The position numbers and the translations under genes are program-made. Shown here piece by piece: positions 7,984-60,339 of a stretch of 64,000 nucleotides of DNA. Under the pieces are notes generated by a model. It was not told the DNA's origin, searched no databases, and worked only from the letters and a program-made list of their open reading frames with translations. Where the stretch lies: the IMG/VR virus record IMGVR_UViG_3300025011_000026; one strand, 5' to 3'. Source of the stretch: a virus. Lineage: Duplodnaviria; Heunggongvirae; Uroviricota; Caudoviricetes. Numbering within the stretch: the stretch's first letter is position 1; each line of letters opens with the position of its first letter.

Positions 7984-8454
7984 ATGTCAATGACCATAGG
8001 TGTAATTTCAGGTATGGTAGCATTAGGTGCTTTTGGTATAGGATATTATTTATACAACTCTAAAAACAAATCTATTCCTAATTCTAATTCTAAACCAGAA
8101 ATCAAAGTAAAAGAAATCAAACAAAAGCAAAAAGTTGAATTATCACAGAAAACATATGCTCCATTAAATTATGTTCCTAAAAATACAAAACCAACTCCTA
8201 AGACAACTTATAATTCTAATTCTAATCAAAATCGTAAGAATAATAATCATGTTGAAGATGATTATTTGTTAAATACTTCAATAGGTTTTGGAATTATTAG
8301 TTCTGCATCAGATGATCATGATAGTCATAAACATTCATATCATAGTTCGCATAGTTATCATGACTCACATGATAGTGGTAGTAGTTCGCATAGCTCGTAT
8401 GATTCTGGTGGCAGTTCTGACTCAAGTAGTTGTGATTGTGGAGGATGTGATTAA
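7984..8454 (+). CDS. membrane-anchored protein with His/Ser/Asp-rich tail
   Basis: One N-terminal TM helix (IGVISGMVALGAFGIGYYLY). C-terminus is DDHDSHKHSYHSSHSYHDSHDSGSSSHSSYDSGGSSDSSSCDCGGCD. Confidence 0.6.
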   Translation: MSMTIGVISGMVALGAFGIGYYLYNSKNKSIPNSNSKPEIKVKEIKQKQKVELSQKTYAPLNYVPKNTKPTPKTTYNSNSNQNRKNNNHVEDDYLLNTSIGFGIISSASDDHDSHKHSYHSSHSYHDSHDSGSSSHSSYDSGGSSDSSSCDCGGCD

Positions 8455-23603: not shown

Positions 23604-23855
23604 ATGGAAGAGCAATATAGCAAAGTTAAAGAAATTAATGATATATGGTTAGAATTAACCAAGTTTTGCGACAGCATGAATTGTCATGATGGTATGGTTG
23701 ACGCTAATGATTTACTTGACAATGCTGAATATGTTAAAAATTTATTAGAAAAATACTTGAAGTATAATAAATTACTTATATCCCATAAATATCCAACCCT
23801 ACAACCCTACTCTCACAACACTTTCAAAATCATAAAATCTCATAATTTCCAATAA
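23604..23855 (+). CDS. hypothetical protein (3' third runs into the G-free element)
   Basis: SD GAGAGGAGG then ATG 23604. The C-terminal part is encoded by the repeated G-free tract, so the true stop and function are uncertain. Confidence 0.45.
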   Translation: MEEQYSKVKEINDIWLELTKFCDSMNCHDGMVDANDLLDNAEYVKNLLEKYLKYNKLLISHKYPTLQPYSHNTFKIIKSHNFQ

Positions 23856-23858
23856 AAT
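23763..23858 (+). repeat. 96-nt G-free tract (element copy A)
   Basis: No G from 23763 to 23858. CCATAAATATCCAACCCTACAACCCTAC is shared with copy B. Confidence 0.6.
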
Positions 23859-28331: not shown

Positions 28332-28562
28332 ATGAAAACATTAAATACACAAAAATCAGAAGAACTATGGAATGAAATTAAATCAATAGAATATCTTGTT
28401 TCTAAACTAGGTGGTTGTGTCCAAAATCCAGACTTTGTAAACGAAGAAAATGCAAGAGAAAATTATAATTATTTTATAAATGATTATTATAAAATTATGG
28501 ATAAATTAGTTGAGTTAAAAAATAATATACTTATATTACATGATGAATTAATTAATTTTTAA
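28332..28562 (+). CDS. hypothetical protein
   Basis: SD AAAGGAGAG then ATG. Confidence 0.55.
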   Translation: MKTLNTQKSEELWNEIKSIEYLVSKLGGCVQNPDFVNEENARENYNYFINDYYKIMDKLVELKNNILILHDELINF

Positions 28563-28646
28563 TAAAAATATCCAATATCCATAAATATCCACCTCTACAA
28601 TCCTTATACCATAAGGATCTTAAAATCCTAAAACCCTATAAAAATT
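28546..28646 (+). repeat. G-poor tract (element copy B)
   Basis: G-free at 28546-28614 and 28617-28646. CCATAAATATCCACCTCTACAATCCTTAT is shared with copy A. Confidence 0.55.
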
Positions 28647-44867: not shown

Positions 44868-44946
44868 TCTGCACTAACTTTCTTTTTGCTACATAATTAT
44901 TGATGATACCATATCATGATGCTTATCTACTATCGGATAATTTTAC

Positions 44947-44956
44947 CTGTGGATAA
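44947..44956 (-). promoter_or_regulatory. DnaA box (perfect TTATCCACAG)
   Basis: The plus strand reads CTGTGGATAA. Confidence 0.6.
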
Positions 44957-45020
44957 CTTTCTAATAAAATGGTAATAATAGTAAGATATATACACCTTGT
45001 ATTAGTTTCTTTTGTGGGTC

Positions 45021-45124
45021 TAAAGTTTAGACTGGTCGGGTATAAAACTTAGACGGGTCTAGAATTTAGACAGGTGTTTTCTGTGGATAAGCATCATATA
45101 ACCAGTATAGAATTTAGACAGGTT
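45021..45124. repeat. iterons (4 direct repeats, core TTAGACnGGT)
   Basis: AGTTTAGACTGGTC, AACTTAGACGGGTC, TAGAATTTAGACAGGTG and TAGAATTTAGACAGGTT, with cores starting at 45027, 45049, 45066 and 45114. A variant TTCGACAGGTTGA lies at 45944-45956. Confidence 0.65.
45081..45090 (-). promoter_or_regulatory. DnaA box (perfect TTATCCACAG)
   Basis: The plus strand reads CTGTGGATAA, between iterons 3 and 4. Confidence 0.6.
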
Positions 45125-45130
45125 GACATT

Positions 45131-45523
45131 TTAACTATCTCTTTCTTCCATCATTTTTTCATATAATTTGTCTGCACTAATAACTCCTTCTTTAAAAGAT
45201 TGTTCAATAATTTCTGTTTCTTCTGAGCATAGAAAAATCATCTTTTTGATGTTGCCATTTACACCAGCACTTGCAGTCCACACATAACCATTCTCTTCTA
45301 GCCAATTCAATCCATTTATACAAGATTGGCGAGATAAACCAGTAAGTTTAATTAATTGAGAAATGCTGATCCAATCACCTGTTTTAGCAAATCCCCATGT
45401 TTTTCTAATCATTAAGAGATAAACCTTTAAAGCTGAGAAATTACTAATTCTAGGTATCAATTCATCAAATACAATATTAGGAACCTCCATATAATTTTTC
45501 TGTGGTTTAGGTAATCTGAACAT
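45131..45523 (-). CDS. replication initiator, phage_rep_O-like winged-helix protein
   Basis: YMEVPNIVFDELIPRISNFSALKVYLLMIRKTWGFAKTGDWISISQLIKLTGLSRQSCINGLNWLEENGY matches the N-terminal domain pattern of lambda-O-type and plasmid replication proteins. ATG 45523 has SD AAGGA. The TTG at 45559 in the track has none. Confidence 0.65.
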   Translation of the reverse strand: MFRLPKPQKNYMEVPNIVFDELIPRISNFSALKVYLLMIRKTWGFAKTGDWISISQLIKLTGLSRQSCINGLNWLEENGYVWTASAGVNGNIKKMIFLCSEETEIIEQSFKEGVISADKLYEKMMEERDS

Positions 45524-45570
45524 GTTTTCATCCTTCTTTCTAGCAATAAAAACAGGCAATGCTAGAAGAG

Positions 45571-45598
45571 TTGACGAATTTCTAAAAAATGATATAAT
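45571..45598 (+). promoter_or_regulatory. near-consensus promoter facing away from rep
   Basis: TTGACG, 16 nt, TATAAT. Confidence 0.55.
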
Positions 45599-45604
45599 GG
45601 GTAT

Positions 45605-45680
45605 ATAGAAATTTCATCTAGTCTTCTGGGTCTCCTAAAGCGATGTGTCGGCAAAACTCTACGCTTTAGGAGATTTTTCA
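45605..45680 (+). ncRNA. candidate small RNA 1 (promoter + terminator unit, no ORF)
   Basis: Perfect 12-bp stem TCTCCTAAAGCG/CGCTTTAGGAGA (45631-45673), then TTTTT. About 75 nt from the predicted start. Confidence 0.35.
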
Positions 45681-45793
45681 TTTGCTTATTTAATTTAAGT
45701 TAGTTACAACACAATAAAAAAGTTGATAGCATGTTCCATTACACACTACCAACTTTTGACATTCTTTTACTAAATTATTACCAAAATATAGAC

Positions 45794-45821
45794 TTGATTT
45801 TTTTCTATATCTGACTATAAT
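45794..45821 (+). promoter_or_regulatory. promoter
   Basis: TTGATT, 16 nt, TATAAT. Confidence 0.45.
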
Positions 45822-45827
45822 TAATAT

Positions 45828-45920
45828 CAAGAGCGTCAAGTAAATGTTGTGTTGGAACATTACTTGATCAAAAGCCTGTCAAGTCCTTGCAAGACCTGAT
45901 GGGCTTCGCTTATTTTATTG
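45828..45920 (+). ncRNA. candidate small RNA 2 (two hairpins, T-rich end)
   Basis: Hairpin TCAAGTAAATGTT/AACATTACTTGA at 45836-45867. Long imperfect hairpin at 45872-45906, followed by CGCTTATTTTATT. Confidence 0.3.
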
Positions 45921-45982
45921 AGTTAATTTGTTAGAGTTATATATTCGACAGGTTGATACATTTCTCCTTTAAAGAATTTAAA

Positions 45983-45992
45983 TTATCCACAG
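45983..45992 (+). promoter_or_regulatory. DnaA box (perfect TTATCCACAG)
   Basis: Read directly. A one-mismatch box TTATCCCCA follows at 46012-46020. Confidence 0.6.
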
Positions 45993-45997
45993 GTATT

Positions 45998-46026
45998 ATT
46001 ATACATGAAAGTTATCCCCATGTGTA
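45998..46026 (-). promoter_or_regulatory. possible minus-strand promoter for the rep leader
   Basis: The minus strand reads TACACA, 17 nt, TATAAT. The -35 is weak. Confidence 0.3.
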
Positions 46027-46071
46027 TAGAAATTTTGACAAAATATTTAATCGTTAGGCCGTACAACAAAA

Positions 46072-46110
46072 TCGAAAAAATAAACACTATCCAAAATTAA
46101 CTGGATAGTG
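46072..46110 (-). terminator. rho-independent terminator after parR
   Basis: 9-bp stem CACTATCCA/TGGATAGTG, followed on the minus strand by TTTATTTTTT. Confidence 0.6.
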
Positions 46111-46143
46111 CTTTTGTATTTCAATAAAATTCAATGAAATTAA

Positions 46144-46515
46144 TTATTCAGACATGAGATTGTTCATAGTTTTAAGAAAAATACTATCTTTCTTTTTATC
46201 AGAGACTTCAGGAACCATCTCAACCAGCTCATCTCTATCCACAATAACTTCATTTTTCTTTCTCGTTTTCTTCGGAACTTTTACACTATTTACAGAAACC
46301 TTAATATTGCCTGACACAATGTTATCTGTAATTTTTTCATTAAATTTATCCAATTTAAGTTTTTTTGGATAATAATCCATGTAAAATTTTAAACAAGTTT
46401 TAACCAACTGTGAATTAGAAATTCCTTGTTCTTCAATTTGATTAACATAATCAATTAGAATTTTGTCATTTTTTGAACTAAGGTTTGTGCCAACATATTT
46501 TCTCAGGCTACCCAT
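46144..46515 (-). CDS. parR: ParR-like ribbon-helix-helix centromere-binding protein
   Basis: Starts 2 nt after the parM stop. The N-terminus KYVGTNLSSKNDKILIDYVNQIEEQG fits a beta-strand plus two helices. The tail is basic. Confidence 0.5.
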   Translation of the reverse strand: MGSLRKYVGTNLSSKNDKILIDYVNQIEEQGISNSQLVKTCLKFYMDYYPKKLKLDKFNEKITDNIVSGNIKVSVNSVKVPKKTRKKNEVIVDRDELVEMVPEVSDKKKDSIFLKTMNNLMSE

Positions 46516-46517
46516 AA

Positions 46518-47495
46518 TTACTCATCCATATCCCAATATTGTTTTCCTCCATCAAGATATGCTAAAGCATTAGTCAATTGAGGATGTTCACTTGATAACT
46601 TTGCTGTATTATCAAGTTTAATATTAAGATAAGGTAACAATACTTCGGCAGGGCCTCCCATGACACAAGTTTCTAATGCCTGTTGTAAATCAAATGTTTT
46701 TTCCAAAGAAGAAATTACATTATCGATATAATCTATAAGAATTTCATCTTTTGTCCTATCTAGATCATAACTTTGCTTTCGCAATGTAATCTCTGACCGT
46801 TTAAGATATTGCAATAATTCATGAGGTTTAAATCTAGTTCCATTCTTAGAATTAAAAGTTGTTGTAATTTGCTCTAGTATTTGATCAAAACCAAATTGTG
46901 TATAACTTACTTTAGAATCTAAAATTACTTCAGTATTTTCAGGATTAATATCGTCACCTTTACGCCATAATGAAGCATCTAAAGTTCCACCACCAAAATC
47001 TAAAACCAATAGGGGATATTCATATCTTCCTTTTTGAGAATCAGTTATTCCAGATTGAATGTAGCAAATAGAATCAGTTATTTCAATATTGATATTACCT
47101 CTATCATCACCGATATTAATAGTTTGTGCTTTCATAGTTTTTAATTTTTCAAGATATGCATTTGCATGTTGTTTGTAATAACCAGCCGGAGTACCAACTA
47201 CTAATTTAACTTTAATATCTTTACATTCTGGAAAACTTAAAGCAATAGAAGTTAATGTACATAAATCAAAATGTGTTGTGGTGTATTTATCTGGATTGAT
47301 ATAAATTTTTCCTTCTGGATCTCCTACAAGATGACTTAAGCCATCTTTTTTAACTAAGTAAGTATTACTTTTTAGTAGACCATCGCCCTCAGTATTAAAC
47401 TTAATTCTTGCTCTCAATACTATCCCTTTACTGGTTTTGTAGTACGAATTTCCTGCATCAAGACCTAAAATTTCTTCATCGTTCATCTCATTCAT
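46518..47495 (-). CDS. parM: ParM/StbA-type actin-like segregation ATPase
   Basis: Phosphate-1 LGLDAGNSYYKT and phosphate-2 LVLDFGGGTLDASL motifs. 325 aa. Confidence 0.8.
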   Translation of the reverse strand: MNEMNDEEILGLDAGNSYYKTSKGIVLRARIKFNTEGDGLLKSNTYLVKKDGLSHLVGDPEGKIYINPDKYTTTHFDLCTLTSIALSFPECKDIKVKLVVGTPAGYYKQHANAYLEKLKTMKAQTINIGDDRGNINIEITDSICYIQSGITDSQKGRYEYPLLVLDFGGGTLDASLWRKGDDINPENTEVILDSKVSYTQFGFDQILEQITTTFNSKNGTRFKPHELLQYLKRSEITLRKQSYDLDRTKDEILIDYIDNVISSLEKTFDLQQALETCVMGGPAEVLLPYLNIKLDNTAKLSSEHPQLTNALAYLDGGKQYWDMDE

Positions 47496-47566
47496 TTTAA
47501 ATTCCTCCTAAATAATATTTCAATGTATGCGAATAGTGTATCATTAATTGTGTACTTTTACAAGTT

Positions 47567-47659: not shown

Positions 47660-48156
47660 ATATCTATTAATTAGAAAAGTCAGAAACTTCAGAGATGATT
47701 CTATCTTATATGATTATTTTTTAAAGATCAGGGCAAAGTAATGCTAGAGGACGAGGAAAGTTAACATATAGAAGGAGTAGTTTGATGATTAAGTCCTGAG
47801 AAATCAGAGCTTTTCTTTTTTTGTAAAGTATACTTGGGTATATTGGTAAACATTTAGTATACTCATATTTTATAATAATATTATTTATATATTAAACCAT
47901 CATACGTACTCCTATAAACACCTAATTATCCATTTTTAAACCATTAATATAAGCTATTTTCAGGATGTAAAATTTAAGAAAAGATGAATTATCATCAATC
48001 TAAGCCTTTGAAAATAATGTTTGGTGTGATTGTGTTAGTATGATTAGTTAAGGTTGTTTTAGGTTAAAGATTTCCCATTTATTACTATACATAACGTACA
48101 AACAATACTCAATAAGATTAAACATATCAACACCACACAAAGGAGGTCACAAAGCA

Positions 48157-50273: not shown

Positions 50274-50279
50274 TTGATT

Positions 50280-50837
50280 ATGAAAAAACCAAACAAAAAA
50301 TTATTATTCTCTCTTGTATTATTAACATTATTATCAATACCACATCCTGTATCTGCCAAAGGAGAATTAACTACTAAACAAGCAAAAAGCATTTTAAACA
50401 TCATTATTGATAAAACTTATACAATTCTCACATATTCGTCTTCTCCTTGGATTTATCCTGTAGATGGAATTGTCACAAGTCCTTATGGGCCAAGAGAATC
50501 TTCGATAGATGGATTTCATCATGGGTTAGACATCTCTGCAGTAGAAAACACTCAAGTTCATTGTTCTAAATCAGGGATCGTAGTTAAAGCAGAATTTAAT
50601 GAAATGGTTGGAAATGTTGTGTGCATTAATCATTCAGATGGATTTCAAACTATGTATGCACACAACAATAAATTATTAGTCAAAGTTGGAGATAATGTAA
50701 ATCAAAATGATGTTATTGCATTGTCCGGTAATACTGGATTATTGTCAAGAGGAGCGCATGTACATTTTGAGATTCGTACCAATAATGGAACAAATTCATT
50801 AAATCCAATGAATTATTTACCTGCTAAACAAAAATAA
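50280..50837 (+). CDS. secreted M23 (LytM-type) peptidoglycan metallopeptidase
   Basis: Signal peptide MKKPNKKLLFSLVLLTLLSIPHPVSA. HxxxD motif GFHHGLDI and HxH motif AHVHFEI. Confidence 0.85.
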   Translation: MKKPNKKLLFSLVLLTLLSIPHPVSAKGELTTKQAKSILNIIIDKTYTILTYSSSPWIYPVDGIVTSPYGPRESSIDGFHHGLDISAVENTQVHCSKSGIVVKAEFNEMVGNVVCINHSDGFQTMYAHNNKLLVKVGDNVNQNDVIALSGNTGLLSRGAHVHFEIRTNNGTNSLNPMNYLPAKQK

Positions 50838-50855
50838 ACCCCTCAAAATGAGGGG
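50825..50855 (-). terminator. terminator for the minus-strand peptide gene
   Basis: 7-bp stem CCCCTCA/TGAGGGG, followed on the minus strand by TTTATTTTTGTTT. Confidence 0.5.
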
Positions 50856-50881
50856 ATGAAGTAGGATCATATTGATATTCA

Positions 50882-50983
50882 TTATTGAATTAATCTTCCT
50901 AATTGTTGTGCAATATCAACTAATTGATATGATCCATACCCTATTAATCCTACTCCAATTGCTGTTCCAAATATTAAAAACAT
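50882..50983 (-). CDS. 33-aa hydrophobic glycine-zipper peptide, antisense-oriented inside the T4SS operon
   Basis: Minus-strand SD AAAGGAG, 9 nt, then ATG. Translation MFLIFGTAIGVGLIGYGSYQLVDIAQQLGRLIQ. It has its own terminator. Confidence 0.4.
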   Translation of the reverse strand: MFLIFGTAIGVGLIGYGSYQLVDIAQQLGRLIQ

Positions 50984-51227
50984 AAATTTTCACTCCTTTA
51001 AATCATATTTCATTAACTGTATTATTACCAAACTATATGTCGAATATACATGAATTGATGTAAATTTTAAGACAAGAACCCTATATTAGCCACCTATACC
51101 AAGGATAATACACCCTAAATCCTACAGTCCTTTAATATCAATGGTCTTAGACTTGAAAATGTGGGGTCTTCTTATATAAGGAGGCAGATTTGCCGACTGT
51201 TTTAATTTTCAAAGGAGGTTGTTTACA

Positions 51228-51479
51228 TTGAATGAATTTTTAAGTTGGTCAACAAAGATTTGTTTGGCTATGACTGCTCTTGGTGGAGGATTGGCTATGC
51301 TCATGATCGTCTGGTCTGGGGTCATGGACATCATCGGAAATGGGCAATGGAAAGCTCAAGCAAAAGAACTGAAAGAAAGTGTAATTCGTGGATGTATCAC
51401 TATAGTCGTTGGGCCTTGGATCATAAAAATCTTGTGGAGTATATTAAAAGGAATCTTTCCAACACTTCCTACATTTTAA
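51228..51479 (+). CDS. VirB2/TrbC-like two-TM protein
   Basis: SD AAAGGAGG, then in-frame TTG 51228 (TTG 51219 abuts the SD). Two hydrophobic helices flank a polar loop, and it lies just before the VirB6-like gene. Confidence 0.35.
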   Translation: MNEFLSWSTKICLAMTALGGGLAMLMIVWSGVMDIIGNGQWKAQAKELKESVIRGCITIVVGPWIIKILWSILKGIFPTLPTF

Positions 51480-51509
51480 TTATTACAATTATAAAGGGGA
51501 TGATCATAA

Positions 51510-52544
51510 ATGCTTACAGTTGGAGAAGTAGGAGATGCAATTATTAACTTTTTTATTAAACCACCATCTCCTGAAAATGTTGATATAATACATGGGGCAT
51601 TATTCAATGCTCCTTCTCCAGAAACAGTAGAGAGTGTCAATAATGCTCTATTTAATGCACCTACACAACAAGATATTACAACAGTCAATGGAAGATTAGA
51701 GCATTTTATTACTGACTCATTAGTACAAAACTTTGCACAATTATTTCTTCATACACCAAATGTATTGGCAGAAAACCCAACCATATTATCTTTATATACT
51801 TTCTTTTTAAAAATAATTATTTCATTTTCATTTGCAGGAATAGTATATTTTGGAATTATGCAAATCATGAATAAGGGTAGTAAACACAATACAACGGAAT
51901 ACATTGTTAAGATAGCTCAATCAATGGTAATTATAAATATAGCAATTATAGCATTGCCATTGCTAATTGAAGCAACAAACAAATTTACTATAGCAATTCT
52001 TTCTCTTGGTGGATCTGAAGCACAAATGGTAAAAGCATTAAGTCCTCAATATGGATTAGGATTAATCATATTCACATTAATTTTTGCATTAATTCTAATT
52101 AATCTAATATGGTTCTATTTCATGAGAATGATTTCTATTATGTTTCTAATTGCAACTGCTCCTATATTCTTCTTTTTATGGTTATTCCCTAAATATCAAA
52201 ATATGAGACAGGTTTGGATTGATGAATTATTAGATAATCTAATTGCACCAATTATACATGCAATAATTATGGTTATTTGGTTAGGGTTTGAATCATCAGT
52301 ATCAAAATCAAATCATGGAGCACTTTATCATGTAATGCTTTCCATAGCTGCTGGTTCATTTATGTTAAAAGCACCTTCTTATGTCCAACAATGGATTTCT
52401 CATGGTCATCAATCACCAAATCCTATACAAATGTTTAAAGAGATAAAGTATGGGTTAAGTCCTAGAAAACTTATCGGTTATGGAGGATTTGGAAGAATGG
52501 GAGGAAGTATGTTTAGAGGAAGAGGGACTACAAAAAGGAGGTAA
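51510..52544 (+). CDS. VirB6/TrbL-like polytopic membrane protein
   Basis: At least 5 long hydrophobic segments. N-terminal three 16-aa repeats (PSPENVDIIHGALFNA / PSPETVESVNNALFNA / PTQQDITTVNGRLEHF). Gly/Arg-rich tail. Confidence 0.5.
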   Translation: MLTVGEVGDAIINFFIKPPSPENVDIIHGALFNAPSPETVESVNNALFNAPTQQDITTVNGRLEHFITDSLVQNFAQLFLHTPNVLAENPTILSLYTFFLKIIISFSFAGIVYFGIMQIMNKGSKHNTTEYIVKIAQSMVIINIAIIALPLLIEATNKFTIAILSLGGSEAQMVKALSPQYGLGLIIFTLIFALILINLIWFYFMRMISIMFLIATAPIFFFLWLFPKYQNMRQVWIDELLDNLIAPIIHAIIMVIWLGFESSVSKSNHGALYHVMLSIAAGSFMLKAPSYVQQWISHGHQSPNPIQMFKEIKYGLSPRKLIGYGGFGRMGGSMFRGRGTTKRR

Positions 52545-52548
52545 TTCA

Positions 52549-52896
52549 ATGTTTAATAATGAGATGTTTGAAACTAATCAAATCATTGAAATGAAAGACG
52601 AAATATTTTATGGACTTACAGGAAAACAAACTATTTATTTATTAGGTGGAATAGTGCTTAGTTTATCTGTATTTAATACTGCATTACCTATTATTGCAAA
52701 ACTATTCATTCTACCAAATATAGGTATTCCTACTGCAATTTTAACTAAAACTGATGTAGATCAAGGGATAGTTTCTTTCTTTAAATTCAAATGGAGAGGA
52801 GTGACAAAACAAAATGTTACAATACAATCTTTACCCAAAAGCAAATTATCTTTTAGTAACAAAAGAAGAGCAGACGCTACTTCGATCAAAGTTTAA
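52549..52896 (+). CDS. PrgI/VirB3-like small membrane protein
   Basis: SD AAGGAGG then ATG 52549. KDEIFYGLTGKQTIYLLGGIVLSLSVF matches the conserved (F)GLTxRQ-TM start of PrgI-family proteins. It lies directly upstream of the VirB4-like ATPase. Confidence 0.45.
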   Translation: MFNNEMFETNQIIEMKDEIFYGLTGKQTIYLLGGIVLSLSVFNTALPIIAKLFILPNIGIPTAILTKTDVDQGIVSFFKFKWRGVTKQNVTIQSLPKSKLSFSNKRRADATSIKV

Positions 52897-54322
52897 GTAT
52901 TTATTAAATTCTCTAAATGAACCATTTAAGATTATTTGTAAAACTGACTTAAATCAATTAAACAAAGAAATACAAGTTAATGAGTCAAGTTATTCTCTTA
53001 CTACTAATGCAAATATTTACGAAAATTTGCGTAATTCTGGAATAGACTATACTCAAAATCAATTACTAATTGCAAGTAATATTCAAATAAAGGAGTATAG
53101 AAAGTACATTGGTGTTACTGAAAACAATGTAAAATATTTTGCTAAATCAATCAAGGTTATCCAATTTCCACAAATGCTTTCTACTGGATTCATAAACAAC
53201 TTAATGATTTCTGACACTGAAATTGCTCTTACAATCTTTCCATTGCCACAAGAAGAGGCTGTAAAGGCAGTAAAAAAGAGAATTGATACTACTGAAGCAA
53301 ATGCTAATTGGAAGGCCGTAAAGAACCCTAATCAAGAGTTTTATGTAGAAGATGAAATTGTATCAAAACTTCAAAAGACTATGGTTGATCTTATGGGTAA
53401 TGAGGAAAAACTTTGTATGGTTGGATTATATATTTTAATTAAAGGACAAACACTTGAACAATTAGAAACAAAATCAAAACAAATATCAATGCTTTTAGAT
53501 GGAATGCAAATCAGATTCAAATTCGCTAATTGTGAACATTTTAATTGTTTCAAGAATTTTAGATCATATAAAGAAATTGACTATGTAAAGGAGTTAAAAG
53601 TGTTTTTAACAAGTGTGATTAGTAATTTTTATCCATTTGTTAGATATGTATCAGGTGATGGAATTATAATTGGATATGATTATCAAAATTATCAATTAAT
53701 TAAGATTAATTTTGCAGAGCAATTCAATCTGTCATGGTTCATTTTTGGAATTTCAGGAAGTGGAAAATCATTTGCTGTGAAATCAATTGTCAAGAAAATA
53801 TCTAGTCATAAGAAGATTTATATTCTTGATATTACTGGTGAATACGCCAAATTAAAATCAAAGAATATTATCATTATATCTAAGGATTTTGAGAAATTCC
53901 TACTGTACACCGATTTTAAAGATTGCATGATTGTAATTGATGAAGCATGGGATATTTTAAAAACTGATGCAGTTATTAAAAGAGTGGTAGCAATTGCCAA
54001 AGGATACAGAAAACGAGGAGTAGGTGTTTTAGTCTGCACACAAAACATTGCTGATACAAGTAAAGAGGATATTGAATTAATTATTAAAAACTGTGCTAAT
54101 ACTTTAATTCTTCACTTAACCTCCTTAGAACTTCAACATATTAGTGAATACATGAATATACCATCTCATATTGTCGATTATCTTTCTAGGATTGAAAAAG
54201 GACAAGGATGGATGACCATAGGAACAAAGAAATATGCTTTTAGCCCCATATTTAGTAATGAAGAATATTTATTATTTAATACCAATTATGAGGAAATGAA
54301 AGGGGTTGGTTATAATGGGTGA
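52814..54322 (+). CDS. VirB4-like T4SS ATPase (short form)
   Basis: Walker A FGISGSGKSF, Walker B MIVIDEAW. SD GGAGAGGAG 11 nt upstream. It overlaps the PrgI-like gene by 83 nt. Confidence 0.65.
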   Translation: MLQYNLYPKANYLLVTKEEQTLLRSKFKYLLNSLNEPFKIICKTDLNQLNKEIQVNESSYSLTTNANIYENLRNSGIDYTQNQLLIASNIQIKEYRKYIGVTENNVKYFAKSIKVIQFPQMLSTGFINNLMISDTEIALTIFPLPQEEAVKAVKKRIDTTEANANWKAVKNPNQEFYVEDEIVSKLQKTMVDLMGNEEKLCMVGLYILIKGQTLEQLETKSKQISMLLDGMQIRFKFANCEHFNCFKNFRSYKEIDYVKELKVFLTSVISNFYPFVRYVSGDGIIIGYDYQNYQLIKINFAEQFNLSWFIFGISGSGKSFAVKSIVKKISSHKKIYILDITGEYAKLKSKNIIIISKDFEKFLLYTDFKDCMIVIDEAWDILKTDAVIKRVVAIAKGYRKRGVGVLVCTQNIADTSKEDIELIIKNCANTLILHLTSLELQHISEYMNIPSHIVDYLSRIEKGQGWMTIGTKKYAFSPIFSNEEYLLFNTNYEEMKGVGYNG

Positions 54323-56021
54323 AAAGATAAGCAAGATTAAAGATATGGCAATTAAATCAGGTAAATATTCTGCTTTGTATACTGGACAATTTATTTTAGG
54401 TGGATTAGGCTATGCTGTTCAAATTGCTTCAAATGGAATATTAGGAATGAGCATTCCAGATTATAAACTGCCTAATTTGAAGTTTGGAGATGATAAAACT
54501 TCATTAGGAGATAGGGTAGTGTTAACTCCTAGTAAATTTCTTCTTAAAGGAAATGGCATAGTAATTGGCAAAGACTATAATACAAAAAATGTACTTACTT
54601 ATCCTGTAGATCATTTTGACGATCTTATGAAAAATTTTATTTATGTTGGGTCTCCTGGAAGTGGAAAATCAAATTTAGCAGAAAATATAGCAGTTCAAAT
54701 ATCTAAAATTAATAATTTACCTAATTTTAATACAGCAGGATTTTGTGTGATAGATGTAGCTGATGGAGCATTGATTGATAATATTTTAATGTCTATTCCT
54801 GAAAACAGATTGGAAGATGTAGTTTTATTAGATTTCTCTAATAAAGATTTTCTGCCAGGAATTAACCTTCTAGAATTCGATGAAAAAGTAGAGAAACAAT
54901 TCCCACACTTTATTCATGCTGAAATAATCTCATTCTTTAAAAAACGATTTGGTGAACAAATTGGTTATGCTAGTGAGGATCTTTTATCAAACTCGTTGAA
55001 CGCAATTCTGAAACAAACTGACTATCCTAAAACACTATTAGGAATTATCAAAATGCTAACTGAAGTAGAATATCGTGAACAAATAGTTGCATCTTTGAGA
55101 AAAAATAAAAGGAATGCTTCAGTAGTCAGATATTGGGATAGATTTGAAGCTCAATCTCCTTCTGTTAAAAGAGATATGGTTAAGCCTTTATTAAATAAAG
55201 TTGGAAATTTAACCAATAATGATTATTTAAAATCTATTATATGTCAAAACAAATCTACCATAGATTTTAGAAAAATTATGGATAGTGGCAAAATTCTTCT
55301 TATAAAAGCACCAAAGGTTGCTGTCGGAAAAGTTAATATAGAAATATTGATACCATTGATTCTTTCAAAGTTTTGGATCGCTGCTTTATCAAGATTTGAT
55401 ATTACTAATACTAATTTACGCCGTCCATTCTTTGCCTTTCTTGATGAACCTCAAATGTATCTATCAAATGAAGCAGGAATAGAAGAAATGTTGACGGAAA
55501 TGAGAAAGTATAGATTTGGACTTCATTTTTTCTTTCAATCCCCTGAACAAACGCAACTTCAATCAGTTATCAAAATGATGTTAGAAGTCAATCCTCAAAT
55601 TATATCATTTGCTATGGGTAGAGGTGGAGCACAAACATTATTTAGAGAATTTGAAACTGGTGATGAAGAAAAAGACATGTCAAATAGATATGCAATTCTT
55701 AATCTCCCAAAACATCACGCACTTTGTAGATTTTTATATAAAAGCGAAAAGAGTGTATCTATTATTAAATGCGATCCTCCAATTAAACCTTTGCGTAAAA
55801 AAGTACCTGATATTATTACTGAAAACAGTCAAATGTATTTACGTTCTGTTGATGAAATTATGGAAGAAATTCTTGAATCGGATTATATCCCTGAACCAGA
55901 TTTTAGTTTAGGGGAGGTGAGCAATAATGAACAGCAAAGATTTAATGTTGAAAAAATTGATTGTGGGCCAAAAATACGCCCATTTAACGGCGAGAGATTT
56001 AGAGATAATAAGAAGTATTAG
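54315..56021 (+). CDS. VirD4/TraG-like type IV coupling protein
   Basis: N-terminal hydrophobic segment. Walker A VGSPGSGKSN, Walker B FAFLDEPQ. ATG 54315 has better SD spacing than TTG 54306. Confidence 0.6.
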   Translation: MGEKISKIKDMAIKSGKYSALYTGQFILGGLGYAVQIASNGILGMSIPDYKLPNLKFGDDKTSLGDRVVLTPSKFLLKGNGIVIGKDYNTKNVLTYPVDHFDDLMKNFIYVGSPGSGKSNLAENIAVQISKINNLPNFNTAGFCVIDVADGALIDNILMSIPENRLEDVVLLDFSNKDFLPGINLLEFDEKVEKQFPHFIHAEIISFFKKRFGEQIGYASEDLLSNSLNAILKQTDYPKTLLGIIKMLTEVEYREQIVASLRKNKRNASVVRYWDRFEAQSPSVKRDMVKPLLNKVGNLTNNDYLKSIICQNKSTIDFRKIMDSGKILLIKAPKVAVGKVNIEILIPLILSKFWIAALSRFDITNTNLRRPFFAFLDEPQMYLSNEAGIEEMLTEMRKYRFGLHFFFQSPEQTQLQSVIKMMLEVNPQIISFAMGRGGAQTLFREFETGDEEKDMSNRYAILNLPKHHALCRFLYKSEKSVSIIKCDPPIKPLRKKVPDIITENSQMYLRSVDEIMEEILESDYIPEPDFSLGEVSNNEQQRFNVEKIDCGPKIRPFNGERFRDNKKY

Positions 56022-56691
56022 GGATTTTAAAATATTCTCCAGAACTCAAATTCAAATAATGTTCTTTCAATCCAAACAAAGTTTAACTATTTGCAATCGA
56101 AGGCTGGCTGAAATTGAAAGATTAGAATTTATAAAAAGGACACCAATAGCATTAAATGGGGAATCATTAGTCACTGCGGGAAAATTGCTTTGTCAAATTG
56201 GTGGGGTATATATATCAAAATTACCATCCGACTATACGCATCAACTATTAATAAATGAAATTTATGCTTTATTGTTCAGAGAGCAGAATTTAAATAGAAT
56301 TACTATCAAGCAATATAAACCAGAATTTGTTTACAGATACAAAGATAGAGAAAATGGCAAACAATATATTTTTAGGTCTGATATATTAGTTGTATTAACT
56401 AAGAATAATCAAGATACCACTTTGCTATTCGAAATTGATGCCGGAACAGAAAGCAAGAAACAATTAAGAGAAAAGATTGCTGTTTATGAAAAAGTGTCTC
56501 AAAAAGTGAAAGGGTTTCCTCGATTATTCTGGTTGACTAATACATTGGGATATCGAAAATTAACAAATTTAGATAAACAAATTAATATTGCTCAAGTAGA
56601 AGAATTGAGAAACGACTTTTATATTTTTACTCGTTACCCAGATATGAAGAAGATTAAATTAATTCCTGATATTGTGGTCTGGAAAATATAA
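55927..56691 (+). CDS. replication-relaxation (Replic_Relax) family protein, candidate relaxase
   Basis: LTARDLEIIRSIRDFKIFSRTQIQIMFFQSKQSLTICNRRLAEIERLEFIKR is the typical N-terminal wHTH pattern of the family. Strong SD GGGGAGGTG. It overlaps the coupling-protein gene by 95 nt. Confidence 0.6.
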   Translation: MNSKDLMLKKLIVGQKYAHLTARDLEIIRSIRDFKIFSRTQIQIMFFQSKQSLTICNRRLAEIERLEFIKRTPIALNGESLVTAGKLLCQIGGVYISKLPSDYTHQLLINEIYALLFREQNLNRITIKQYKPEFVYRYKDRENGKQYIFRSDILVVLTKNNQDTTLLFEIDAGTESKKQLREKIAVYEKVSQKVKGFPRLFWLTNTLGYRKLTNLDKQINIAQVEELRNDFYIFTRYPDMKKIKLIPDIVVWKI

Positions 56692-56712
56692 CTGGAACGG
56701 AGATGTTTAATT

Positions 56713-56880
56713 ATGGGATTTATAAGTAATTTAATTAGTGGTTTTGATAAGCCAGAAATTGATATTGATGAATTAGTAAATTTTATAATTGAAGAAACAC
56801 ATGTTAGTAGAGATATTATAGAATTGATTTTAGATACCGAGGAAATTTATTTAAGGATGAGAGGAATTATTATTGATTAA
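56713..56880 (+). CDS. 55-aa acidic protein, last gene of the operon
   Basis: SD GGAACGGAG then ATG. Translation MGFISNLISGFDKPEIDIDELVNFIIEETHVSRDIIELILDTEEIYLRMRGIIID. Confidence 0.45.
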   Translation: MGFISNLISGFDKPEIDIDELVNFIIEETHVSRDIIELILDTEEIYLRMRGIIID

Positions 56881-56886
56881 GATTTT

Positions 56887-56914
56887 AAGGATGATTTAAT
56901 TATCATCCTTTTTT
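56887..56914 (+). terminator. rho-independent terminator of the T4SS-like operon
   Basis: 9-bp stem AAGGATGAT/ATCATCCTT, then TTTTT. Confidence 0.7.
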
Positions 56915-56956
56915 AATATATTTTATAAAAAAATGATTGACAAGGTATTATTTGCC

Positions 56957-56984
56957 TTGTTTTTGTGTATATTTAATGTATAAT
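56957..56984 (+). promoter_or_regulatory. promoter of the DGQHR gene
   Basis: TTGTTT, 16 nt, TATAAT. A perfect TTGACA at 56937 is too far upstream to pair with this -10. Confidence 0.4.
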
Positions 56985-57006
56985 GAACGGAAAGGACTGA
57001 TTTGAG

Positions 57007-58557
57007 ATGAAAATTCTATTTTCTGATAAAGTTAAGGATATTAAATTGGAAGGAGATATACATGATATGAGTAGGAAAAGTAAGGAGAGATTTACACAGA
57101 TGGATATTGGTTTGGTTAATGCAGTAAAGGAAGAGGTGATGAACGGAATGAGTGATAATCACTCAGAAGAAGATCAAGAAATGATTCAGGAGATGGAAAG
57201 CATCACTCGTGAAGAAACTGCCGTTGGTTATGAGAGTGCAAATAGTTTTGAAGAGAATAGTAAAAGTGGAGATGTTATTAATTTGGGTGAGAAATCTATG
57301 CCAGCATTTGGTAGTTTAAGTGAAAAGACTAAAATAGAAGAGTCAAATGGGGATGATAAAGAGCAAATGTCAACTGAAGAATTTAATGAAACTAGAAATG
57401 AAGTTTTAGATAGTAAGAGTGAGTTCGAAAAGAAAAAGGAATTAAGAGAAGCAAATAAATTGAAACGAGATATGAGAAGTAAATTAAAGCAATTAGACAG
57501 TGAAAATGATGATAAATCATGGGAACTAAACAATGTCCAAATCGTCTTGCGTGATGGTAAGCCTTATAAATATTTGGTATCACTATCTTGTATGCAGTTG
57601 GCTGAGTGGTATATCTCTAAAAAGCTGATTTACGATTTTGGCGTACAAAGAGGCAGTAAAACCAATAAAAAAGGCGAGGAAGTACCTATACTTTTTCTAA
57701 AACATTGCAATGATATCAAAACTGCAATTTTAGATGGGTCAATTCACGGGGGAACATTGAGTCTAAATTTGCCTACTGACAATAATACACAACTTTTTTA
57801 TGACGAAGACAATATGACTTTAAGTTCTGACGTTCCCTTAACCATAAATGATGGTTTTCACCGCATATATGCAAGTTATTTGTGGTATAAGGAATTTGTT
57901 AAACCAAATAGTACATGTAAAAGTCCTGAAACGTTCTATTTTCCAGCCAATATTGAGCATATTAGTAGACAAGCGAGTTGTGATTTATTCAAAGAATATG
58001 CGGTTATGGGGAAATCTATTAGTAAGAACAGGATTAGTGTCCATAATGTATTTGATAAAAATTATGAAATCACACAGAGGGTTGCAAAATCATCTCAACT
58101 TCGTGGACGTATAGAAATGATTTCTAATTCAATTAAAAGAAGTAGTCCTTGCATTTTTACTTATGGTACAATATTAAATGGAGTATCTGAATTTAAGGTT
58201 ATTACTCAGGGGAAAGAAGAAGAAGTTGGTAATTTCATCATTGAGTTCTTAAATGAATTAATCGAATTATTTCCTAATCTAATGGGTCATGTTGATTCAG
58301 AAACAAGAGCGATAGAAAAACAAAAGAGTTTTGTACTCGAAAAAATGTTTCAAAATTCTTATTTTGTGTTAGCTAGTCAATTACAAGGTAAAGATGATTG
58401 GAAGAGTAGATTGGCTAAATTGACACAAAACAATTTCCTATCAAGAAGTAATCCAATGTGGGGCTTTTGCCTTAGAGAAGGCGAAAAAATAGTGAATTCT
58501 TCAAAGGTGCAAAAAACAATTACTGAGAAAATTATTGACTATGTGATGGCAAACTAA
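57007..58557 (+). CDS. ParB/Srx-fold DGQHR-type (DndB-like) protein with acidic disordered N-terminus
   Basis: FGVQRG ... LTINDGFHRIYASYLW resembles the QR ... DGQHR signature of DndB/DGQHR-domain proteins. The first ~170 aa are Glu/Asp/Ser/Lys-rich. Confidence 0.4.
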   Translation: MKILFSDKVKDIKLEGDIHDMSRKSKERFTQMDIGLVNAVKEEVMNGMSDNHSEEDQEMIQEMESITREETAVGYESANSFEENSKSGDVINLGEKSMPAFGSLSEKTKIEESNGDDKEQMSTEEFNETRNEVLDSKSEFEKKKELREANKLKRDMRSKLKQLDSENDDKSWELNNVQIVLRDGKPYKYLVSLSCMQLAEWYISKKLIYDFGVQRGSKTNKKGEEVPILFLKHCNDIKTAILDGSIHGGTLSLNLPTDNNTQLFYDEDNMTLSSDVPLTINDGFHRIYASYLWYKEFVKPNSTCKSPETFYFPANIEHISRQASCDLFKEYAVMGKSISKNRISVHNVFDKNYEITQRVAKSSQLRGRIEMISNSIKRSSPCIFTYGTILNGVSEFKVITQGKEEEVGNFIIEFLNELIELFPNLMGHVDSETRAIEKQKSFVLEKMFQNSYFVLASQLQGKDDWKSRLAKLTQNNFLSRSNPMWGFCLREGEKIVNSSKVQKTITEKIIDYVMAN

Positions 58558-58571
58558 AAATGGTAAAAATA

Positions 58572-58607
58572 AGAGTAATAATCACAAATTAAAGTGATTA
58601 TTACTCT
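58572..58607. terminator. bidirectional terminator between convergent genes
   Basis: Perfect 14-bp stem AGAGTAATAATCAC/GTGATTATTACTCT with A/T-rich flanks. Confidence 0.6.
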
Positions 58608-58620
58608 ATTATATTATTTA

Positions 58621-60339
58621 CTACTTATAAATTCCCCAAACCAATTTTTCACCAGTTTCAGGATGTTTACCAGCCGATTTTTGATTGCCACTGCAACATC
58701 TAGATATGCCATTCGCAGACATATTATATTTTATTGAAGCATCCAACATACTCTCAAAAATTTCATTTGTTGTTATACAAATTACCTTTTTCTTACAAGA
58801 ATCATAATTTTCTGCTTTAGCATTTTTTAAACTATATTCTATTTCATCTTCTGTTTTCAAAAGATATTTTTCATAATACATCCAAACCAATGGCTCACCA
58901 GTTATCGACTTACCTGCTGATTTATGCTTACCTTTACAACATGCAGATATATTTGGTCTTATTGATTCTCTGCCATTGAATGAAGCTTCATATATAGAAT
59001 CAAATATTTCTCCAGTTGTAATGCAAATCACTTTCTCGCATATTTCTTCTTTTGGGTTATAAGAACACCATCCTAATTCTGTTCCTTTTTTAAGATAACT
59101 CCTTATCGCACTACTACTCAAATTTAAATTTTCCCCTATTTTAACTGTGCTTTTAATTCCTTCATTCCATAAACTACATGCTGTTTTAACTAAATTTCTA
59201 CACCCTGCTTCTTGCACTCTTAACCAATCTATATCTTCTTCAGTAAAATTTAATAACTCTGGCAATTTACTATTCATAATACTGTCCCTTATCCACCCTA
59301 TTTCAGACGTTCTGCAATCAATTATTAAATAATTTTTAATTTTATTACTCCTAGCCAACCATTCCTTATCAAAATCATTGATTTGTATATCATCTAATGA
59401 ATCCCACTTACTTTTCGTTTCTTCGTAGTGTTGAATTCCTTGACACTCTATCACACCATTTATTTTATTTATGTATATGTCATATCTATAATTTTCACAC
59501 CATTTAAAAGTAGTTTTTGATAATTGAATGATAAATGTTTCGTGTAATTGTTCTAAAACATTTATCATAACCTTTTCGGGGATGCTCACACCATCTCCAC
59601 ATCTGTTGCAACCGAAACCGTGATTTACTAAGTTAGAAATTTTAATCATTTTTTCATAACCACAATCAGGACATTTAGTTAATACATATTCACCTGACCC
59701 AAAAGAATATTTATGTGCATCATTTATATTCACAAAGAAATGTGTTAAATGAGGATGTGTGACAAAAATAGTATTGCACATATCACAATCTAGACTACCC
59801 TTTTGTCCTCCTGTAAAAGAACTTATATGTTTTTGTTCAGGTTTGTGTTCTGGATTATCTAAACAATTAAACCAATATCCTTTTTTATCTATGCCTTGTG
59901 AAGCAAAACTTACATCTTTGGGAGATAATTTATTACCATCTTTATCAACATTCAGTTCGCAATTCCAACGATTAATTATTATATCTGCTTCATTTTTATT
60001 TTTATTATCATAGCACCATTTGTAAAAAGATGTCCATTGTTTATCTCCTGCGTTTGCACATCTTAAACAATAATATTTTCCATCTTCTCTAACTTGTGAA
60101 GTATAGTCAGACCACCTTATATTTTCTAATAATTTTCCACATCCATCACATTCAATATTTACAAATACTCTGGCCTTATCTTGTAGATCCTCTACTTTAA
60201 CTTTTATTATTGCACCTCGTATATATTTTTCTTCGCCATTCTTATTTATGTATTTTGGTATCTCATATCCTTTTGCTTCATACCATTTAATATTTTTACT
60301 ACCTAACCCAACCTCAGCCTCTTTTGTTATCAATCCCAT
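58621..60339 (-). mobile_element. Zn-ribbon / PD-(D/E)XK-like / NUMOD-like endonuclease gene (free-standing homing-endonuclease-like)
   Basis: Several treble-clef-like Cys pairs (CDGC ... CLRC, CDMC, CPDC ... CNRC). Putative nuclease core YRYDIYINKINGVIECQGIQHY. Two C-terminal repeats VICITTxEIF(D/E)S ... CC(K/S)G ... KSAGK ... LVW. Confidence 0.45.

Follow-up and report, generated by a model that had tools for sequence, protein, structure and literature searches.

The DNA analysed here, called the window throughout, is a stretch of 64,000 nucleotides (nt) from an uncultured tailed phage of the class Caudoviricetes (IMG/VR record IMGVR_UViG_3300025011_000026), and the subject of this analysis is a single gene on its plus strand, which encodes a protein of 516 amino acids (aa) with a DndB-like domain. 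To judge by its sequence, this protein belongs, as a divergent member, to the phage YopQ/SroE family (phrog_5732, Pfam DndB), a family that is already known to Pfam and PHROG and whose biology is barely described; what is new here is the N-terminal module of the protein and the stand-alone arrangement of its gene. The gene, the segments of its product and the signals that surround it are the following (pLDDT being the predicted local distance difference test score and pI the isoelectric point).

56887-56910, plus strand: hairpin followed by TTTTTT; perfect stem of 9 bp, -10.9 kcal/mol, z -3.7
56939-56961, plus strand: second hairpin, formed by the perfect palindrome ACAAGG-N9-CCTTGT (56940-56960) and followed by a T-run; -10.9 kcal/mol
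56957-56984, plus strand: likely promoter of the DndB-like gene, with TTGTTT (56957-56962), a 16-nt spacer and TATAAT (56979-56984) after TG; conserved in position
57007-58557, plus strand: coding sequence of the DndB-family (phrog_5732, YopQ/SroE-like) protein; 516 aa, ATG start, stop codon included
57007-57156, plus strand: conserved N-terminal head, aa 1-50, including the F-x-QMD-x-x-VVN-x-VKEEV helix; defined by conservation
57157-57372, plus strand: acidic linker, predicted disordered, aa 51-122; pI 4.15, net charge -13, pLDDT <50
57373-57510, plus strand: long charged helix, aa 123-168; helical at 123-163 in the AlphaFold model, pLDDT 64-82
57511-57906, plus strand: predicted ParB/sulfiredoxin (Srx)-like core, aa 169-300, with QRG and DGFHR; domain call
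57907-58554, plus strand: predicted helical C-terminal domain of the DndB family, aa 301-516; pLDDT 84-97
58572-58607, both strands: bidirectional terminator, common to the convergent 572-aa gene; perfect 14-bp stem (58572-58585 / 58594-58607) with an 8-nt loop

The coding sequence is preceded by the ribosome-binding site GAAAGGA (56990-56996), 10 nt 5' of the ATG, and forms, as an initial annotation made from the sequence had proposed, a monocistronic unit, which lies between strong hairpin terminators on both sides. The hairpin at 56887-56910 closes the upstream transcription unit, which ends with a Replic_Relax gene and an open reading frame (ORF) of 55 aa, and a hairpin with a T-run is found at the equivalent position in three related loci, L003, L005 and L007. 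At the other end, the bidirectional terminator reaches -18.6/-18.7 kcal/mol with z about -7.5 to -7.7 on both strands, its T-tract being better on the minus strand. While this perfect 14-bp terminator had been read correctly, the promoter proposed with it held only in part: TATAAT at 56979-56984 stands as the only good -10 in the promoter region, whereas TTGACA at 56937-56942 is excluded as -35 because it is spaced 36 nt from that -10. We consider TTGTTT-16 nt-TATAAT as the likely promoter, because the CTTG of the -35 position is invariant and an A/T-rich -10 keeps its position in the aligned upstream regions of three relatives. A simple consensus scan did not call this site; promoter-like matches in the AT-rich DNA of this region are not enriched (13 found against 14.1 expected), and therefore the promoter call rests on conservation rather than on the scan. 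The palindrome ACAAGG-N9-CCTTGT occurs once in the window, where chance would give 0.01 matches, and its 3' arm overlaps the likely -35. The hairpin that it forms may be a second terminator or an operator; as no counterpart was found at the corresponding place in L003, L005 and L007, it is not a feature of the family, and it may represent a second terminator that came in with an inserted upstream module. Being unique in the window and unconserved in relatives, it is not claimed here as an operator. Both the palindrome and this putatively inserted module, of 5.7 kb, lie upstream of the DndB-like gene in the window.

Fold, motifs and family of the protein

The protein scores 59.6 bits (E 3.5e-16) with Pfam DndB (PF14072), for which the gathering score is 29.1; the match runs along residues 269-510 and profile positions 91-332 only. 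An AlphaFold2 model built on 25 homologues shows residues 1-122 as disordered (pLDDT <50), a helix at 123-163 and a confident fold at 170-516 (pLDDT mostly 80-97). A structure search of BFVD returned 11 matches at E ≤1e-3, including proteins named 'DNA-sulfur modification-associated' and GmrSD_N proteins; Foldseek of the model against the PDB gave no significant match, and the sole hit of the sequence profile in the PDB was spurious, on the low-complexity N-terminus (E 0.03). With structural scores that are modest and a profile match that is clear, the predicted assignment to the ParB/sulfiredoxin superfamily stands, the protein having the Srx-like alpha/beta core and the G/x-x-x-R phosphate-binding motif of its members. 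The initial annotation had placed it in the DGQHR/DndB-like branch of this fold and had proposed AlphaFold and profile searches as a check; the Pfam score, the model and the BFVD matches agree on the DndB/ParB relationship. At a finer level, the protein reaches 26.6 bits with the NCBIfam model for DGQHR proteins (TIGR03187), under the cut-off of 58.85, and matches no DndB or DpdB equivalog model of NCBIfam.

The motifs QRG and NDGFHR, first noticed by eye in the C-terminal part, correspond to residues 214-216 (57646-57654) and 281-286 (with DGFHR at 57850-57864). Q214, R215, G216, D282, H285 and R286 are invariant in 25 homologues, and the Q, R, D, H and R remain so when SPbeta YopQ, ORF65 of Perkons, the DGQHR protein of a C. 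difficile phage and the Alkaliphilus plasmid protein are added. The same five residues (Q214, R215, D282, H285, R286) are invariant or nearly so across the classes of the family that differ in N-terminal extension. The motif reads DGFHR here, not DGQHR, and its G and Q positions vary in the family, with only D, H and R being invariant. The charged, acidic character ascribed to the N-terminal ~170 residues is also borne out, since residues 1-170 contain 25% D+E, 16% K+R and 11% S, have a pI of 4.69 and are mostly predicted to be disordered. Within the acidic linker, which is variable in length, P-x-FGSLSE (aa 99-106) is conserved, and the modelled charged helix that follows (aa 123-168) is a possible coiled-coil or dimerisation element. 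The idea that the N-terminus might be a DNA mimic found no such support: its acidic stretch carries only -13 over 72 residues (51-122) and is predicted to be disordered, whereas known DNA mimics are folded and far more acidic.

The best library match of the whole protein is phrog_5732 (E 4.2e-28), in which residues 120-508 align with profile positions 63-434 of 441, covering most of the length of a profile that is the best PHROG of YopQ also. A 460-aa ORF of SPbetaL8 matches this PHROG at 2e-170, and the proteins of C. difficile elements, Perkons and Alkaliphilus match it at 1e-123 to 8e-64. The SPbetaL8 ORF can be identified as YopQ because a 325-aa ORF starts exactly 23 bp after it, a layout matching the one that Kohm et al. 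report for yopQ and yopR (bioRxiv 10.1101/2021.11.22.469490). In hhalign comparisons, the profile of the window family aligns with YopQ at a probability of 99.0 over ~300 columns, the domain being aligned through residue 486, and with the DGQHR protein of the C. difficile phage at 99.6, through residue 513. Searches with tblastn against phages and plasmids produced weak matches only, of 22-26% identity, in SPbeta-like Bacillus phages, Psychrobacillus phage Perkons, C. difficile phages of ~130 kb and a phage-plasmid, and an Alkaliphilus megaplasmid. All the annotated phage and plasmid records with a match look temperate or episomal, their temperate status being partly presumed.

A profile search of 1.84 billion representative proteins retrieved 659 relatives at E ≤1e-3, which form classes with no N-terminal extension (~375 aa), with an extension of ~100 aa (~445 aa) and with a long acidic extension; 47 of 58 family representatives match PF14072 and five match GmrSD_N, with no other domain being fused. 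Identical copies of the window protein are present on groundwater metagenome contigs. With either the single protein or a 7-sequence alignment as query, a scan of 185,579 GTDB species genomes returned no relative, and IMG/VR yielded a single contig that was already known. As to gene context, Perkons (L017, 5524-8957) shows the triad integrase / DndB-like / integrase, as in YopP-YopQ-YopR of SPbeta, and in the Alkaliphilus megaplasmid pB6464 (L016, 6289-9065) a divergently oriented integrase adjoins the DndB-family gene; a neighbour of tyrosine-recombinase fold is not present beside the family member in the window lineage or in the C. difficile phages.

Modular architecture and the phage element

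Residues 1-50 share 50-60% identity with most full-length relatives (range 33-64%, with P0006 at 16%), whereas identity in the DndB body ranges from 80% down to 28%, in groups of about 80%, 45% and 30%; one conserved head of 50 aa is thus combined with at least four divergent bodies. Some relatives are mosaics, such as P0012, which is 87% identical to the window protein in residues 51-122 and 41-48% in the body, and P0021, with 60% and ~30%, respectively. At the DNA level, similarity to L007 extends from the ribosome-binding site to about codon 45 of the gene and not beyond, and similarity to L005 covers about codons 19-50 only. Differences inside the QMD..VVN.VKEEV segment fall largely at third codon positions, which argues for selection on the peptide. 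A search with the N-terminal 171 aa alone yielded only truncated copies of the DndB-like gene, and the head is therefore not shared with other protein architectures; neither the head motif nor FGSLSE occurs anywhere else in the window or related loci. Different body types are found together within individual samples, namely P0014 with P0028 in 3300024999 and P0001 with P0014 in ERZ27254726. Moreover, the actin-like protein (ALP) is 91-96% identical between phages with conserved DndB heads but bodies that are ~30% identical. The notable feature is the conserved head joined to exchangeable bodies, rather than body divergence alone, and this pattern fits, as far as sequences can tell, a specificity or immunity determinant.

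The position of the gene is also constant in relatives. In five related contigs the DndB-like gene is always the final gene of the rightward block that begins beside the ALP locus, and is followed by a convergent, variable set of genes, often homing endonucleases. Every long relative carries the ALP_N gene 5-10 kb upstream of the DndB-like gene, with the two on opposite strands everywhere but in L003. A gene for an M23 peptidase is immediately 5' of the DndB-like gene in L003, L004, L007 and L008; L005 has ORFs of 79 and 228 aa between the two, and in the window lineage and L013 a block of 5.7 kb intervenes there, made of a weak PrgI-like hit, a DUF87/VirB4-like ATPase, a phrog_5156 protein and a Replic_Relax protein. 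The remaining features of the window that bear on the gene are as follows.

44900-47500: region of putative origin and partition, with DnaA boxes, iterons, Rep_O-like and ALP_N genes
45131-45559, minus strand: Phage_rep_O-like ORF
46144-46515, minus strand: 123-aa ALP partner gene, directly downstream of ALP; 88% identical to relatives
46518-47495, minus strand: actin-like ALP_N gene; 91-96% identical to relatives
50274-50837: Peptidase_M23
52480-52896: weak PrgI-like hit
52814-54322: DUF87/VirB4-like ATPase
54306-56021: phrog_5156 protein
55927-56691: Replic_Relax protein
56713-56880: acidic 55-aa ORF, upstream neighbour of the DndB-like gene
58621-60339, minus strand: convergent endonuclease-like ORF of 572 aa, matching phrog_4538 and homing-endonuclease PHROGs, with a weak match to DUF4379 (treble-clef zinc finger)

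The window has a G+C content of 27-31% throughout, and megablast of the 10-kb neighbourhood of the gene found no near match among GenBank phages or PLSDB plasmids. It encodes a DnaB-like helicase, a primase-like protein, a PD-(D/E)XK nuclease, a DnaE-type polymerase, a ribonucleotide reductase, a two-subunit topoisomerase II and a PhoH-guanylate kinase fusion, while relative L007 carries Thy1 and a dNMP kinase. Three of the five perfect DnaA boxes (TTATCCACA) of the window lie within 1 kb, at 44948, 45082 and 45983, and four 19-nt iterons are located at 45018-45123. These boxes and iterons, together with the Rep_O-like gene and the ALP locus with its partner, suggest plasmid-type maintenance, and hence the phage is probably kept as a plasmid prophage.

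On the left side of the DndB-like gene, a conjugation-like gene set of Gram-positive type (50274-56880) is found inside the phage genome. The stretch from 51.2 to 56.9 kb is confined to the window lineage and L013, is missing from L003, L005 and L007, and may be an inserted mobilisable module; L003 and L007 have an unrelated ORF of ~790 aa before the M23 peptidase. In mechanical ORF calls, the phrog_5156 ORF (ending at 56021) and the Replic_Relax ORF (starting at 55927) overlap by 95 nt. The relaxase-like gene is called with 210 aa on the identical contigs L009, L010 and L012 and with 242 aa on L011, against 254 aa in the window, and given these later starts the true start of Replic_Relax is probably downstream. 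On the right side, an Amidase_3 endolysin and a C1 peptidase are encoded convergently, so that the gene, with VirB4-like and Replic_Relax proteins upstream, does lie between transfer and lysis modules, as first described; the accessory hotspot postulated there is also recognisable as a variable region whose neighbours differ between relatives, several being homing endonucleases. The convergent 572-aa ORF has internally repeated C-terminal modules and shares 50% identity with a 740-aa ORF that L007 has at the equivalent position; other relatives have GIY-YIG/NUMOD3 endonucleases at this position.

Elsewhere in the window, two long stretches of the plus strand free of G, at 23763-23858 (96 nt) and 28546-28614 (69 nt), have in common a 63-nt repeat (CCATAAATATCCA...) and lie in coding-strand DNA that is otherwise G-rich; shorter runs without G are found at 8043-8097, 47858-47952, 50965-51018 and 51772-51833. 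In the initial annotation, the DndB-like protein had been suggested as a possible binder of these dispersed G-free elements. The G-free stretches have no Rfam match, and the whole window of 64 kb has neither tRNA genes nor any Rfam family at gathering threshold.

Possible roles of the DndB-like protein

In functional terms, these observations raise a question: What would a stand-alone DndB-like protein with an acidic N-terminus do for a phage that is probably a plasmid prophage? The explanation that we favour, with a rough probability of 40%, is that it acts as an SroE-like, nucleotide-gated DNA-binding regulator of lysogeny or maintenance. The gene more likely serves to regulate the DNA of the phage itself than to provide defence, because its product is a divergent relative of the lysogeny repressor YopQ/SroE of SPbeta. 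The role of a regulator had been one of several options in the initial annotation, and it now appears the best supported for a reason not given there, the common membership of phrog_5732 with YopQ and SroE. We take SroE to be the same protein as YopQ; Brady et al. are said to have introduced this renaming in 2023, and SroE and SroF reportedly bind to multiple sites of the phage genome. The dormant SPbeta prophage transcribes yopQ from an operon that also contains yopR, the gene of the master repressor, and deletion of yopQ gives translucent colonies (bioRxiv 10.1101/2021.11.22.469490). A ParB_N_Srx domain is present in YopQ (PMC8612738), and SroE is presented as a second repressor of SPbeta-like phages that is required to establish lysogeny, its relation to SroF being given there as unknown (bioRxiv 10.1101/2025.11.27.690993).

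According to the regulator model, the ParB/sulfiredoxin-fold core, accompanied by the helical C-terminal domain, would use the invariant QR and D-x-x-H-R residues to bind a nucleotide triphosphate, and the protein would bind the phage's own DNA, silencing or regulating genes while the element exists as a (probably plasmid-like) prophage. Expression in the lysogenic state would come from the gene's own promoter, as a single-gene transcript insulated by terminators at both sides. The lineage-specific N-terminus, with its head, acidic linker and long helix, might dock a conserved partner, auto-inhibit DNA binding, or both, and the exchangeable DndB body would set DNA specificity.

Several points weigh against this model. 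The homology with YopQ is remote, at 22.6% identity, and function may therefore not transfer; the deletion of yopQ does not induce SPbeta (bioRxiv 10.1101/2021.11.22.469490). In SPbeta and Perkons the homologue sits between two genes of tyrosine-recombinase fold (YopP/SroD and YopR/SroF), while tblastn with YopP-like and YopR-like proteins found no match in the window and no recombinase-fold gene is adjacent. The C. difficile homologue lies outside a lysogeny module, between dnaE and the ribonucleotide reductase gene, and because of this different context the role of the family may not be uniform. No helix-turn-helix (HTH) or other recognised DNA-binding domain was found by Pfam in the window protein or in 58 family representatives, and among recurring palindromic operator-like sites in the window no family had more than one copy or did better than shuffles. 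With regard to the presumed temperate lifestyle, no integrase or CI-type repressor was seen among the scanned ORFs of the 64 kb, a scan that did not take in every ORF. Finally, the M23 peptidase encoded nearby shows a comparable divergence between relatives (35-44% identity), and therefore the divergence of the DndB bodies is not exceptional in itself.

Of the alternatives, the one that survives best, though we consider it unlikely, is that of an effector in conflicts between elements: a stand-alone ParB/Srx nucleoside triphosphatase (NTPase) or nuclease engaged in defence, counter-defence or inter-element exclusion, which would degrade the nucleotides or DNA of competitors or block DNA transfer, like Osa against conjugative plasmids, and would diversify in an arms race. 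Among enzymes with this fold are Osa as well as the DUF262 sensor domains in GmrSD, SspE and BrxU (PMC10853773, PMC11662687). Location and variation could agree with such a role, as the gene lies in a variable region beside homing endonucleases and directly after a block resembling type IV secretion systems (T4SS) with a relaxase, and its body is strongly diversified between otherwise similar phages. Nonetheless, the single-gene defence that had been suggested, with PADLOC as its check, gains no support from PADLOC-DB 2.0, in which no model of a defence protein matches (0 families at E up to 10), and neither the window protein nor the 58 family representatives have a fused nuclease or other effector domain. 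In addition, the only studied members of phrog_5732, and DndB itself, are described as repressors, and relatives without the relaxase block keep the gene in position, so that a specific link to the transfer genes is not seen.

The regulator of lysogeny that we prefer may also be conceived in a bolder form, to which we would give less credit than to a conflict effector, namely a stand-alone, modular silencer of 'immunity type' for plasmid-like prophages, whose body is swapped into hetero-immune or incompatible types and which works without the integrase-fold SroF. Its nucleotide-gated ParB/Srx-DndB body would be exchanged between otherwise near-identical phages, while all types would be coupled to one conserved partner, such as a host factor or the actin-like partition machinery, by an N-terminal peptide that does not vary and sits on an acidic auto-inhibitory tether.

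That partition machinery is central to another possibility, less probable again, in which the protein would be a maintenance factor of a plasmid-type prophage with a ParB-like role in partition, replication control or incompatibility; the head would make contact with the highly conserved ALP machinery, leaving the variable body to recognise a site specific to the element. Besides the ParB/Srx fold, this possibility could account for the ALP_N gene lying 5-10 kb upstream in all long relatives, with the DndB-like gene ending the following rightward block, and for the high conservation of ALP between phages in which heads are conserved and bodies differ; moreover, ParB proteins contact their partner NTPase with an N-terminal peptide. 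The place of an adaptor appears to be taken, however, since the 123-aa gene after ALP, 88% conserved, is the expected ParR/AlfB-type partner, and we know of no ParB-fold adaptor in actin-like systems. The window protein has no match to ParBc (PF02195) or HTH domains either, and no centromere-like repeat array is found near its gene.

Membership of Pfam DndB would also be compatible with an accessory ATPase of a DNA-modification pathway, working in the manner of DpdB or DndB with catalytic partners encoded outside the window, an option we regard as improbable. The DndB-like DpdB is needed for 7-deazaguanine insertion (PMC10164549); the phage has many genes of nucleotide metabolism (ribonucleotide reductase and the PhoH-guanylate kinase fusion, plus Thy1 and dNMP kinase in L007), and the window covers no more than a part of the genome, which measures at least 92 kb. 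Partners of this kind are nevertheless missing where they were looked for, in agreement with the initial annotation: scans of about 40 window ORFs against Pfam or PHROGs revealed no TGT/DpdA, Que-type or DndACDE gene, and none is found in the 20-kb contexts of five relatives. TIGR03187 stays under its cut-off, no DndB or DpdB equivalog matches, and the gene neighbours vary, so that no conserved partner is evident.

Lastly, we regard it as very improbable that virions carry the protein and inject it, the head serving as capsid-targeting propeptide, FGSLSE as prohead-protease site of L-x-E type and the DndB-fold body entering the cell together with the DNA: the head and FGSLSE are indeed conserved within an otherwise variable, disordered and acidic N-terminus, and FGSLSE resembles the L-x-E processing sites of T4 type, but the gene does not belong to a structural module and has a housekeeping-type promoter, family members without N-terminal extension exist, and no report of YopQ as a virion protein is known to us.

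Comparison with known systems

The DUF262/GmrSD_N sensor domains of SspE, BrxU and DndI, as well as Osa, belong to the same superfamily as the window protein and have motifs of QR and D-G-x-x-R type; they carry a nuclease (DUF1524/HNH) or are nucleases themselves, whereas the window protein has neither an effector domain nor a PADLOC match. A useful mechanistic analogy is offered by KorB, a transcriptional repressor of the ParB family on a mobile element. The structural similarity with KorB/ParB clamps is limited to ~100 residues, and the window protein differs from these and from canonical ParB in having no PF02195 or HTH match and no ParA partner, with no parS/OB-like or other repeated sites identified and a partition locus that is actin-like (ALP_N) with its own small partner.

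DndB, which in the dnd clusters for phosphorothioation is described as an ATP-modulated autorepressor, i.e. a DNA-binding regulator modulated by nucleotide, resembles the window protein in its PF14072 domain, here above cut-off, and in combining the ParB/Srx fold with a helical C-terminal domain; its nucleotide-modulated action on DNA may, by analogy, be common to both. The window protein departs from DndB sensu stricto by its DGFHR in place of DGQHR and by the absence of linked dndA, dndC, dndD and dndE among the scanned ORFs and in the relatives' contexts. A Dpd system is no better represented, the scanned window ORFs giving no TGT or Que family hit that would indicate linked DpdA, DpdC or preQ0 genes. 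It follows as a caution that a 'DndB/DGQHR' annotation in phages need not mean a gene for DNA modification or defence.

Among phages, profile alignment shows a likeness over the entire DndB domain, C-terminus included (hhalign 99.6), with the DGQHR protein, of the same PHROG, in C. difficile phages and phage-plasmids of ~130 kb (LIBA6276, ES-S-0107-01, NZ_CP149699). The C. difficile element and the window also have in common the gene order helicase, primase, DnaE, although RecJ precedes DnaE in LIBA6276 and a PD-(D/E)XK nuclease plus an unassigned ORF do so in the window; both also have a ribonucleotide reductase. The C. difficile proteins are 379 aa long without any N-terminal extension, unlike the window protein, and the interval between dnaE and ribonucleotide reductase is without a DndB-like gene in the window, where the homologue is found 30 kb away beside the lysis genes.

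YopQ/SroE differs from the window protein in being co-transcribed with the integrase-fold proteins YopP and YopR, of which no homologue was found in the window; no operon of SroD-SroE-SroF type surrounds the monocistronic window gene, whose neighbours are the 55-aa ORF and the convergent endonuclease-like gene, and the N-terminal extensions are unrelated, the one described here being acidic and disordered with a conserved head of its own. Yet both proteins belong to phrog_5732 and have the QR and D-x-x-H-R motifs (hhalign 99.0), both have an extension of at least 100 aa before the DndB domain, and both come from large phages of low-GC hosts, presumably so in the case of the window phage. Proteins of SroE/YopQ type constitute a recently recognised and mechanistically unexplained class of phage repressors built on a ParB/DndB nucleotide-binding fold, and the family now extends to uncultured groundwater phages that resemble plasmid prophages, in which a member can occur without integrase-fold partners. 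The combination of one head with several divergent bodies provides natural chimeras for asking which part of such a protein gives DNA specificity and which contacts partners, and the two studied branches, YopQ/SroE and DndB, both point by analogy to nucleotide-modulated DNA binding and repression.

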